NCBI GenBank assembly: GCA_012026655.1
Contig: JAAILG010000791.1
Span: 1 to 64,000 of the forward strand
Direction of reading: 5' to 3'
Length of the DNA stretch: 64,000 nt
Source of the DNA: Hydrolagus affinis
Lineage: Eukaryota
The notes under the pieces were generated by a model. That model saw only the letters and a list, made by a program, of their open reading frames with translations. It did no database searches and was not told where the DNA came from. Positions 6,268 through 51,851 of this stretch are shown here, one piece after another; the first letter of the stretch is position 1, and each line of letters opens with the position of its first letter. The position numbers and the translations under genes were made by a program.

Positions 6268-6600
6268 AACCAAGGCTTCATTCAGCTTCATCCACTGGCA
6301 TTTGTTGAAGCAATAGAAAACCCTCCCCACCCACTTCCATTTGCTTGCTCGGGAGGCAAGACTCCTGTAAAGTCCTGTTGATCATGGTTAGAGCACTCGC
6401 TTTGTAAGTGAGAGACCTGGGTTCAATCCCAGGCAGGGCAAAAATTTATAATAATAGGTTTCCTTATTCCACACACCTAATAATAATCTTTCCAACAAAA
6501 AGATTGATCATCTCAATCCACAACTGTTTGTGGGGCACTGCTGTGCACAATTGGCTGCTGCTTTTGCCCACAAAATGTACAGTCAATTCACTTTACAGTA

Positions 6601-20285: not shown

Positions 20286-20590
20286 GGAGTCCTGTAGCTC
20301 AGTGTTTAGAGCACTTGCCTTACAAGCAAAAGACCTGGGTTCAATTCCAGGCAGGGTAAAATCTTGGGCAAATTTCCTTACTCTACACACCTAATTATGA
20401 TCCCTCAAAAAACCCAATAATAAATTGGTCATTTCAATCCTCAACTGTTTGTGGAACACTGCTGTGAGCAACTGGCTACCATGTTTCACCCACGTAGTCA
20501 ATTCACTTTACAGTACATTCTGTGAAGTGCTTTGAGACGTCCAGAAGACATGAAAAGCTTTATATCAAATGCAAGGATTATTAATATTAA
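20286..20590 (+). mobile_element. Young tRNA-derived SINE, full length (reference copy)
   Basis: ggagtcctgtagctcagtgtttagagcacttgccttacaagc...gggttcaattcc head (tRNA-Val(TAC)-like), A-rich linker, Deu-type ctgtttgtgg..gctgtg.gcaa.tggct segment, and L2-like tail gctttgagacgtc...atcaaatgcaaggattatt. Confidence 0.93.
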
Positions 20591-30492: not shown

Positions 30493-30696
30493 TAACAATA
30501 ATCCTTGCATTTGATATACTGTAGCACTTTATCGTGTTTGAGACATCTCAAAGTGATTCACAGAATATACTGCAAAGTGAATTGACTGTATATTTTGTGG
30601 GCAAAGCGCAGAAGCGCACATTTCACCCTGCGGGAATCAAACCCAGGTCTCTCACTTGCAAGGTGAGTCCTCTGACTACCGAGTTACAGGACTCCA
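30493..30696 (-). mobile_element. Young SINE, internally deleted
   Basis: Tail and head are present; the central linker is missing. Confidence 0.85.
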
Positions 30697-37317: not shown

Positions 37318-38580
37318 CTAGGGGCCTGAACAATTCCTGTCAGCAGACAATTGGAATGTGAGGAGAGAGCCTCACCACCAGTCTGAATCCCCTCCTCATT
37401 CATCTCACATGTAACAGCAACCAACAGCAACCAACACTCAGTGGTCAGCAAAACATGAGCCGTAACCACACATGTCTTCGCATAGAAGGTTGCAGAGAAG
37501 AAATATTACAAAGCAAAGTCTACTCATTTCACTGTGGTAAAGACTGACACAGTACTTAATTTAAAAAACTTGTAATCTGATCATCTGAAATGCAATGAAA
37601 CCACTTACTAATTTTTTTTCCAGTTTGTAAGAATGAATATCGGTCTATCATGATTTGTAGATGACCTAGTATCTAATACTTCCAATGGTCAAACCTTTTT
37701 ATTTCTGTGCTTTATATTTTCCCACAGCCAATGGTGATATAGCAGAGGGAAAGATGTTCTTCTCTGATGACCCTATGGATGTCCGTGGGTCCATTCAGTT
37801 TTAAACTAACACTGAGATTTAGCTCCACTAAGTCCTGTAAGTTAAACCCGTGCTAAATGAGAAGCCAGCAGCAATAGAACCATCGGCAGAAAACGTTAGC
37901 CTGACCCAGCTCTCTGCACACAAATTAAAGCTCAGAGTGACAGATATTTCTGTTTCTCCCCTTTCCCATCACCGGACGGCTTCAATCTTGATCCGTTCAA
38001 CTCAGCTAAAGATTTGATTGTGATGCTTGGCAAGGGATGTGCTACAATCATATCATTAACTGTAGAGAACTGAATTCTGCCAACAAAAGGATTCTCTGTA
38101 TTCCCTTTAAGGATTTCTGTCCACTGTTACTAGGTTGCCTAGGTGACAAAACACACTTTTATATTTGAATGCAGGTTCTCTCTCGACTTCATCAGATCTA
38201 ACGCATAACACAGTGCTTTGCAGAAATTCTCAGCTACCAACAGCAGCTGCTGAAACTCATTAACTTTTTTTCTCCAGGTTACTACCTGAACAGTCTGGAA
38301 GCCAAGGCAACGTGAAATATTCTGATCATCAGTAAATTCCTTTTTACAACCCCTGCTGGTCTGCAGCACCCTGATCTATTAATGATTGTTGTGCCTGAAG
38401 GATGTAAATCGACCTTTTGATAGAAAGCATTGAAGATTGCTCTATATCAAAGTTCTATTGCATAACATTGTGGCTTTTGCTTTTCATTTGAAAGGTGAAT
38501 TTCAATCAAATACCCACTAATCAAATACCTACTAACAGGTGATGGGATTCACTTGCAGCACTGCCTTTGGATCACAACAT

Positions 38581-38629
38581 AAAGAAGGTTCTGACGAAGG
38601 GTCGTGGACCTGAAACGTTGACTCACTTT
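38581..38629 (+). ncRNA. Minimal type I hammerhead ribozyme motif (PLE-associated)
   Basis: GGUU-CUGACGA-A-GGGUC(gug)GACCU-GAAA-CG-UU-GACU: both catalytic boxes intact, 5-bp stem II, palindromic ACGU in place of stem III, wobble-rich stem I. Confidence 0.6.
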
Positions 38630-38689
38630 CCTTTCTCAATAGATGCTGCCTGACCTGCTGGGTGTTCCCAGTGATTTCTGTTTTTGTTG
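38591..38689 (+). mobile_element. Penelope-derived 3'-end insertion (99 bp) with 12-bp TSD
   Basis: ATAAAGAAGGTT at 38579-38590 and 38690-38701; the insert ctgacgaagggtc..gacctgaaacgttgact...agatgctgcctgacctgctg..ttcccag..atttctgttttt resembles chondrichthyan PLE termini. Confidence 0.8.
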
Positions 38690-39467
38690 ATAAAGAAGGT
38701 TGTATTGTTTTAAACATGAGAAAGTTCAGGGAGCCAGAATAGAAATGATTCCTGGCAGCTGCGCCAGCAAATAATATATTTCTGAGGTTGCCCATTGTTG
38801 CATGACCTTGACGCACATATTACTATGACTGGTCACATGGCCCAATGACAGTTAAAGAAGTCAGAACCATTTTCAAAGGAGCAGTCTGCCACAGTAAACA
38901 TTTGCCACATACGATAAAAGATGGTCCATCCCTCCCCAGATTAACTAAAAGAGAATTAAACCTTTTTTGGAAAAAACATTGATATTTTTTGTTGAAAATC
39001 AGGGAATAAAAATGAGCCATCAATCATCCATTAGACAAAGCCCACAGCCTGACCTTTACAATCTTTCATTGAATCTTTCCCATTTGGATTAGGTGACAGC
39101 CGGATGTCTGCTGTACAGATGAAAACTGCTACAATTTTGATAATCCTTCATGAGAATACTATTGTTGAACAGTAAGGATAAATGTAACATAACTGAAAAT
39201 TTTCAGAGGATTCAACAAACAGCATACAATGCAACCGAAAGCACTAGGCAATAATGCATAGAAAGGTGCAGACTTATCAATGGTGAATTTGGCTTAAAGT
39301 AAAGCTAAGTGAAAAAACAAACAACAGAATCTTAAAAAGTACATTACAACAAGGTGTGTGTGCCAGCCAAATCACTCACAATGTACACAATGTTTTCTCC
39401 AGGATCTACTGGACATAACTAAAGGTCACAAAACATAATTTCTGTTAAGATTAGCATATATCATATA

Positions 39468-39865: not shown

Positions 39866-41716
39866 GAGCACAAGAAGCACAGCTGACATCAATCACTTCA
39901 CATGTGTACATATTTTCACGTCCAAATACACTAACAATTTGACATCCTCTGACGCAACAGACGCTATATCAATTGCAAGGGTTCTTATTACTTTCACTAC
40001 AATTATATGAGCAGATTTTACCTACAAACAGCAGACACAGTCAACGAGTAAAGTCAGAAAATAAAGTTCCATTTGGATCTTGGAAACAACTGCACAGCAG
40101 GACCCCACACCGGGTCACCGGGATATAAACACATTGTCTGTGCAGCCATGTTAATGGAGTCTAACAGTAGCCTCTCAATGTTTATTTAACAGGTTACTAT
40201 TTTTGAAATTACAGTATACTCTACTTGTTGTATCAATTCAAAGTAAAATTTTCACAAATGTAACCAGAGAATAAGATATGGTGAGTCCACATAAAAACAC
40301 CCACTAGGACAAAGCTAATTTGTTTTAAAATGTGCTTATTTAGGATTTAATACAATATAATAGAGCTGTTTAAGGTTGCTAAAACAGTAGTCTGACATTT
40401 ACTGTGGTTGGACTGTTAGGTACTGAATAATGAGGTGTTAAACTGACTAATTTTGATTTACATTTAATAGAATAGCATTTACAAAGGAACGATTGTAACC
40501 ATTAATCTGCTGTCTGAATGCAAATTGTGTGTACAGACCGCAAAACCATGAAGTTATGGCATGTTTATATTGTAAAGGTGCAACCTCTTAAAGCATTATG
40601 GTATTCCCAGTAGCATTTCTTCTGGAACCACTTACCACTGTGTCCAGTGTTGGGTCTGGAGACCACAGGATCTGGGACAGCAAGGCACATTCTATTGCCA
40701 TGAGGTATGTTGATTGCAATATTTTTTCAGAATGGGGTGGAGCATCAATCTAATACAATGGTACAACATACATTTATATAGGTCCTTTCCTAAAGGCTCC
40801 TATGCAAAACAGATGAAGACATAAGGATCTTATTGCAGATTCTACTAACCATGTGTAAAAGCGTGTGTACAGAGGGAATTACAGGTGTCCTTAATCATGT
40901 AATTAACTCATAAAGCTTTACAGAAAATTACATGTGTGAAGATACCAGTAATTCCTTTTGTACTTAAATTTATACATAGTTTGTCCAACCTATAAACCAG
41001 ATCGCATTGAGTTCACCTCAACATTTATACCAATCCTTTCTAAAAACACTGTCCCAAAAATCGCAAATACACATTAAATAAATGATCCCGGGTGTTTCCT
41101 ATGATTGTGAGAAAGCACCAGATGAGTTAAATTGATCATTGTTTTTACTTCTGCGCAGTTCTATATCAACGTGCCACTTATTAAGTGAAGCTGTAACAGA
41201 ATTATTTACAGCTAACTTTTAAAGTCTTTAGAACCCTTTATTATTGTCAGTATTATCCAGAGAGAATAGGGACAAAATAACATCATATTCAAAGCTTTCA
41301 TCTTCTGTAAATGTGTTTAATATACATTTATATCAGTTTCATAAGTCTCCTTGGAGCATATTTGCACAGTATCCTTCATTTCCTCGTTCTGATAGCATTG
41401 ATCAATTGCATATAAGAGCCTTGATGAGTGTTAAGGGTGTGCGGAATGTTGAGGTTCTGTTGTTACCTGAGGTGGTGGTTTAAAACACTGATTTGTTTAT
41501 TTTTCAGTGGGGAGAATTAACGGGAGCAGCGGGGATGGGTAATTCGACTTTGGTGATGTTTTCAGCTGTGATTCAAGATGAAACACAAATGACTATCTAA
41601 TGCAGCTGAGCCCCTCTTCAGATTAGTAGTCAGAATCATTTCTGTGCAAATGAGATGAGCTCTGTGAGTCCACACAACACCAACTTGCATTTATACATCA
41701 CCTTTCACTATTCTGT

Positions 41717-41816
41717 NNNNNNNNNNNNNNNNNNNNNNNNNNNNNNNNNNNNNNNNNNNNNNNNNNNNNNNNNNNNNNNNNNNNNNNNNNNNNNNNNNNN
41801 NNNNNNNNNNNNNNNN
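41717..41816. other. Assembly gap (100 N)
   Basis: Run of N. Confidence 1.
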
Positions 41817-51559: not shown

Positions 51560-51851
51560 ATAATAATAATCATAGTCCTTGCATTTGATATAGTGCACTC
51601 TCACAGAGCTTCACACAATTTTCTGTAAAATGAATTGACTGTATGTTTGTGGGTGAAACGCAGCAGCAAACTGCGCACAACAGTGTCCCACAAACAGTCG
51701 TGGATTGAATAATCAATTTATTTTATTTTTTTGAGGGATTATTATTACGTATGTGGAGTATGGAAACTTGCACAAGGTTTTACCCTGCTTGGAATTGAAC
51801 CCAATGCTCTCGCTTGTAAAGCAAGTGCTCTAACCACTCAGCTACAGGACT
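51560..51851 (-). mobile_element. Young SINE, near full length
   Basis: Reverse complement of the reference copy, ending ctctaaccactcagctacaggact. Confidence 0.92.

Follow-up and report, generated by a model that had tools for sequence, protein, structure and literature searches.

We analysed a window of 64,000 nucleotides from Hydrolagus affinis (contig JAAILG010000791.1, positions 1 to 64,000 of the forward strand). It carries a short insert with hammerhead-ribozyme boxes, enclosed by a target-site duplication (TSD). Positions marked + or - in the text follow the consensus of the insert's repeat family, in which the A of AGTT is +1. The features of the locus, all on the + strand, are:

38579..38590, +, left TSD copy, 12 bp, an exact repeat (TSDs at other copies are ~10-17 bp)
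38587..38590, +, 5' strand of hammerhead stem I, reading GGUU (family consensus AGUU)
38588..38688, +, solo, tail-less pLTR copy from a Neptune-like Penelope element, covering family +2 to +103 (97/102 consensus positions)
38588..38590, +, GTT microhomology, 3 nt, common to the target and the stem-I 5' strand of the element (consensus AGTT; GTT also ends the right TSD)
38591..38597, +, CUGANGA core box (CUGACGA), conserved in the consensus
38599..38611, +, stem II, GGGUC / GUG loop / GACCU (closing pair G-U here, G-C in the consensus)
38612..38619, +, GAAA box and ACGU palindrome (38615-38618), with cleavage predicted after 38619 (from the sequence and the description in PMC4209133)
38620..38623, +, 3' strand of hammerhead stem I (GACU)
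38643..38645, +, likely ORF start codon, at +58 of the family, placed by consensus position
38689, +, single extra G between the element 3' end and the TSD (consensus +104 is T)
38690..38701, +, right TSD copy, an exact repeat

The 12-bp TSD reported in the first-pass annotation is an exact repeat, 38579-38590 being identical to 38690-38701; two other exact 12-mer pairs spaced 50-300 bp occur in the window, besides a tandem-repeat cluster near 6.8 kb. That annotation had the insert start exactly at CUGACGA, but the match to the consensus begins farther upstream, at +2 (38588), and runs to +103 (38688), with 97 of 102 positions matching, four substitutions and one deletion. Since the consensus reads AGTT and the window matches it from +2, GTT at 38588-38590 belongs to both target and element. 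The element-like stretch is thus 101 bp long and overlaps the left TSD by 3 nt, which upholds the earlier suggestion of microhomology at this 5' junction. G38587, in place of the consensus A+1, is the sole purely host base in stem I.

No second copy of the insert was found within the 64-kb window. Contigs X6 and X11 each contain one insert junction, showing that the insertion is common to those organisms and the window. Contig X13 (~9% diverged) aligns to ~38590 and then stops, which is only suggestive of an empty site. A host gene was sought with Pfam in 28 of the 37 long open frames, a scan that short exons would escape, and no match was returned; the nine other frames comprise two over an N gap and seven more, mostly over SINE copies. 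We also observed a tRNA-headed interspersed repeat of ~300 bp, probably a SINE (6372-6440, 20288-20359, 30623-30693 and 51780-51851, with ~20 related stretches), a 15-bp tandem duplication at 38504-38533, 45 bases upstream of the insert, and an assembly gap near 41700-41800 (200 N in total in the window).

The call of a ribozyme is based on motif and literature descriptor, as an Rfam hammerhead search of the window gave no match in gathering mode or at E up to 10. All of the boxes were read at the positions given earlier: CUGACGA at 38591-38597, GGGUC/GACCU, GAAA, ACGU, GUU ending at 38619, and GACU. Window and consensus both contain the elements of a minimal type I hammerhead (CUGANGA, GAAA, NUH, helices I and II, and a palindromic remnant of helix III). 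In the consensus, AGTT occupies +1 to +4, the conserved box anticipated by the first-pass annotation is present as CTGACGA at +5 to +11, GACT lies at +34 to +37, and cleavage is predicted after +33. A strict full core was found in 25 of 61 copies reaching +5. The minimal type I hammerheads of metazoan Penelope-like elements (PMC4209133) resemble the window copy in their short helix I, the unpaired base before helix II, the palindromic helix III remnant and their occurrence mostly as single dispersed motifs; the window copy differs from those described there by a helix II of 5 bp, two extra wobble pairs and a predicted misfold.

The insert belongs to a large family, with at least 2,946 exact matches in the source genome to a 26-mer downstream of the ribozyme and 2,313 matches to a motif of a sister subfamily. 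Long copies carry a GIY-YIG domain (PF01541) upstream (E 1e-4 and 1e-3), scoring 23.0 bits in L126 (cutoff 22.6) and 19.8 bits, below the cutoff, in L194. In family copies outside the window, a CxxC lies between the two halves of the GIY-YIG domain, in agreement with the CCHH motif of the endonuclease. A reverse transcriptase lies upstream of the endonuclease, with YIDD and DKG motifs and an atlas score of 0.97 to RVT_1 clusters; Pfam and PDB sequence searches with decayed fragments of it returned no match. A C-x4-C-x2-C linker precedes the GIY-YIG domain in L138 and L194 and is decayed in other copies. The pLTR repeat follows the endonuclease in L121-L150 and directly precedes the ORF N-terminus in sister-subfamily copies (L222, L223, L226, L235, L237, L238), so that it flanks the ORF on both sides. 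In L223, the ATG at +58 shares the reading frame of the ORF N-terminus, with one stop between them. Four extension searches recovered no intact full-length element.

This layout is the pLTR arrangement of EN+ Penelope-like elements. The Penelope-like origin proposed earlier is confirmed, and the earlier call of a minimal type I hammerhead was also right. A CX2-5CxxC linker before GIY-YIG is a feature of Neptune and Nematis (PMC8557442), and the CX4CxxC linker therefore points to one of these clades rather than Poseidon, as far as sequence motifs can place the family; Penelope/Poseidon elements have no such linker, whereas the family has one. Neptune-type EN+ elements (PMC8557442) share with the family the order of reverse transcriptase, linker and C-terminal GIY-YIG, the hammerhead pLTR, 5' truncation, inverted partner copies and an optional tail of 30-40 bp. 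Non-LTR retrozymes (bioRxiv 10.64898/2026.07.22.740005) are similar in their origin from Penelope-like pLTRs, their type I hammerhead and the existence of dispersed monomers; however, they are head-to-tail tandem repeats with a hammerhead per unit, whereas the window holds a single TSD-flanked copy and the pairs in the family are mostly head-to-head. The element type is known, and the locus is an ordinary, decayed solo copy of its pLTR.

The first-pass annotation had interpreted the locus differently. There the element lacked its own 5' stem-I strand, and the target site completed or extended stem I to give a host/element chimera able to cleave plus-strand transcripts. A missing strand is contradicted by the consensus: AGTT lies directly 5' of CTGA with per-base support of 0.93-1.0 (28 long copies), and the window matches from +2, so that three of its four stem-I bases are identical to the element's own. 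Flank, fold and stem-I pairing were assessed in a set of 159 copies, which contains the window copy as well as 30 top-scoring loci with a bias towards intact ribozymes; stem I was fully paired (4/4 pairs) in 50 of 66 copies. The extended stem I proposed for the window (4 bp, a mismatch, then 4 bp with wobbles) can be drawn, with wobbles at two of the four inner pairs, but its outer helix is absent from the predicted fold. Among 35 direct copies with junctions at -2 to +6, the window copy is the only one with the 4-bp outer extension, which contributes ~1.6 kcal/mol to the drawn fold, and the host-derived G38587 is able to wobble-pair; yet such a run is found at 3.4% of random window positions. 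Nor do flanks complement the 3' stem-I strand above chance: the duplex test gave p=0.97 against random local DNA, and in-register flank pairs numbered 2.94 versus 2.84 of 8 (p=0.32; both on the 35 direct copies).

Folding predictions likewise argue against a chimeric ribozyme. Stem I has a pairing probability of 0.013 in the window RNA and 0.53-0.57 in the consensus RNA; for stem II the values are 0.19 and 0.79-0.93. The drawn hammerhead (-8.6 kcal/mol) competes with a hairpin of -14.1 kcal/mol (z -0.3), in which the flank and CUGA are paired onto the 3' strand of stem II; the host flank and two changes in the window copy favour this non-ribozyme hairpin. Poor folding is common elsewhere in the family (26 direct copies have a median stem-I pairing of 0.025). 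The window copy is thus predicted, by modelling, to be a poor or dead ribozyme. Published minimal hammerheads were inactive as monomers and weak as dimers (PMC4209133), and Xenopus dimers were inactive in 8 of 9 cases (bioRxiv 10.64898/2026.07.22.740005). RNA run X17 (a related organism, 27% of reads) had zero depth on both flanks, itself weak evidence. We find the chimeric ribozyme unsupported, given the family's own AGTT, the chance-level flank pairing and the predicted misfold, and consider it very improbable.

We mapped copy ends across the family in the first 92 listed of the 2,946 matches, picked by the downstream 26-mer alone. Their 5' ends fell at -2 to +6 in 44 copies and farther upstream in 18, while 30 lay at +10 to +51, some of which are internal deletions and not true ends. 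Hence 44 of the 62 copies reaching +6 end in the hot spot, compared with a loss of ~1% per base on either side (p ~1e-32). The family 5' boundary is real. The first-pass annotation asked whether junctions cluster at CUGANGA; they are indeed non-random, but the hot spot is centred on +1/+2, where stem I starts, and only 7 of the 92 listed copies end at CUGA itself (+5). Ends at the ribozyme cleavage site were rare (1/92 at +34, 5/92 at +34 to +36). By eye, the sister subfamily has the same boundary. A start at +2 is likewise seen in the ORF-bearing copy L223 (duplicated as L238), where the ORF fragment runs directly into a second copy beginning at +1/+2; this second copy extends to ~+100 inside one TSD, as read by eye. 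The arrangement, found at two loci by duplication, has the appearance of a template jump from an RNA 5' end.

At the 3' end, 46 of the 92 listed copies stop at +96 to +110, 38 at +126 to +139 and eight are shorter. The two classes (~+103 and ~+138) differ by ~35 bases, the known optional tail, and agree with the two internal reverse-transcription start sites and the tail described in PMC11167929. A head-to-head partner is present in 46 of the 92, its arm often ending at the same 5' place, and tail and inverted 5' partners are both as known for EN+ Penelope-like elements. TSD calls are incomplete (score of at least 8 in 21/46 inverted and 6/46 direct copies, versus 2/75 mismatched controls). 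In L003, L035, L274 and L284, head-to-head pairs meet at a microhomology of 3-4 bases that lies in or next to the stem-I strands, which is consistent with cDNA self-priming; microhomology at 5' junctions of Penelope-like elements has already been described (PMC3846280). As a separate observation, at least 13 copies (L153, L154, L158-L161, L164-L166, L169, L174, L179, L185) run past the tail into a common stretch of ~1.2 kb. This stretch is a repeat family of its own (1,906 first-look candidates), differs from the sister-subfamily ORF start, and has a textbook-like splice donor and no clear reading frame.

The base before +1 is enriched for a G that is absent from the consensus. Genome-wide, G-AGTT occurs 266 times and W-AGTT (A or T) 248 times, a ratio of 1.07 versus 0.31 expected (~3.5x); G-GTT occurs 191 times against 102 for C-GTT. 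At junctions outside the hot spot, G was present in 14 of 58. In 10 of 17 direct G-AGTT copies, a TSD was called that leaves the G outside; it was the sole added base in two of these, and the bases added between TSD and element numbered 1-4 nt in 7 of 10 cases. Long copies make up 2/40 of the G-AGTT and 2/20 of the G-GTT class, and variant masters or point changes therefore add to the G counts. Four long copies with G at +1 or -1 (L293, L301, L280, L283) hint at variant master elements. An extra G is a mark of full-length L1 insertions (PMC11702581). Full-length L1 copies with a cap-derived G resemble the family in the G added at a run-off 5' junction and in the microhomology at other junctions. 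L1 primes at the RNA 3' end and therefore yields long run-off copies, whereas internal priming in the family would yield ~100-135 bp.

What, then, generates the boundary and its G? Our preferred reading, which we put at roughly two chances in three (about 0.68), is that the window insert is a tail-less pLTR copy with an element-encoded stem I, likely produced by reverse transcriptase running off the capped 5' end of an uncleaved RNA after priming near +103, and joined through the 3-nt microhomology. The element mRNA would start at +1, coinciding with the first base of the ribozyme, where we take a TATA-like CTTAAAAG at ~-30 and a pyrimidine-A initiator-like context at +1 to be promoter-like. 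Reverse transcription primed in the 5' pLTR would produce cDNAs of ~103 or ~138 bases; these would run off the cap, gaining a C and sometimes further bases, and would then be joined to the target directly, via microhomology as in the window copy, or to another cDNA, copied from the opposite strand. Long, variably truncated copies would result when priming occurs in the 3' pLTR. L223, which starts at +2, continues into the ORF and then meets a second copy, fits this run-off model. Penelope pLTRs are known to contain a transcription start (PMC8557442, PMC2377424), and a Penelope-like reverse transcriptase initiates at two positions inside the RNA, downstream of the hammerhead, with cleavage dispensable in vitro (PMC11167929, Frangieh et al.). 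Read starts in RNA runs X17 and X18 did not pile up at +1, an uninformative outcome because these are fragmented single-cell polyA libraries, ill suited to the question. The run-off model does not account neatly for everything: the edge is blurred, with 12 of 159 copies at -1, 3 of 159 at -2 and many at +2 to +5, and inverted copies whose junction lies at +1 show no excess of G at -1 (2/8).

The bases upstream of the boundary also fit another mechanism, copying of 1-2 bases by fold-back along stem I. Here the cDNA 3' end would pair with its own complementary stem-I strand, add 1-2 templated bases and join the target or a partner arm. The G at -1 is the complement of C+38 and the T at -2 that of A+39, and T occupies -2 in 23 of 38 short G-AGTT copies; what survives of the chimera idea is that these two enriched bases would pair in the stem-I register. 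In a sample of 40 G-AGTT copies, two (L274, L284) consist of inverted arms that meet at stem-I microhomology exactly in this manner, the abundance of head-to-head partners noted above is as such a mechanism would have it, and self-priming was proposed in PMC3846280. But extension on this template predicts G at -3, which was seen in only 4/38 short copies and in 0/10 direct TG copies. Moreover, fold-back needs a cDNA that already ends near +1, so it leaves the RNA boundary itself unexplained. We consider it unlikely as the main source of the pattern.

The sequence at the boundary, CCCCAG/TT, also resembles a splice acceptor, a point against the run-off model. The boundary could accordingly be a spliceosomal 3' splice site, with short copies derived from spliced RNA. 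Upstream of +1 there are a pyrimidine-rich tract and motifs that we take, by general consensus, to be branch-point-like and splice-acceptor-like. In Drosophila Penelope, an intron ends at the 5' end of helix I (PMC4209133). Against this explanation, A+1 and G+2 are mostly kept. The copies share no common upstream exon, bases -3 to -7 being mixed, the 1-4 nt additions speak against it, and no RNA joint at the +2/+3 boundary occurs among the joints listed (115 more are unlisted). Splicing is thus somewhat less probable still than fold-back, and the run-off reading remains the one that we favour.

A close published parallel is Poseidon PAc of Anolis (PMC11167929), which also has two 3'-end classes that define the tail, a hammerhead near the ORF start and an uncleaved RNA as the likely template. 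In PAc, however, the start codon lies at stem II, whereas in the family it likely lies at +58, and Poseidon lacks the CX2-5CxxC linker that the family has; no mapped transcription start of PAc was found in the text compared. A fixed 5' boundary aligned with stem I and bearing an extra G was found neither in the passages on Neptune-type elements that we compared nor in the other literature searched, with subscription papers and Repbase notes lying outside its reach; the boundary may already be visible in Fig. S2 of PMC11167929, a map of genomic copy ends.

Taken together, the family-level 5' pattern is a modestly to moderately interesting lead that can be tested. It touches the open question of the role of the hammerhead in Penelope elements and of the RNA that serves as template. 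A broader proposal, to which we give slightly less than even odds, is that transcription starts at the first base of the ribozyme, that the hammerhead would act as a cap-removing switch, and that the thousands of SINE-like inserts of 100-135 bp would be complete run-off copies of capped, uncleaved RNA primed in the 5' pLTR. If so, a template jump at the capped 5' end would also create pLTR tandems. If the hot spot is the capped start, the genomic copies would support, in vivo, the use of uncleaved templates and of internal priming, which have so far been shown in vitro for one element, and would explain the abundance of lone minimal hammerheads in such genomes.
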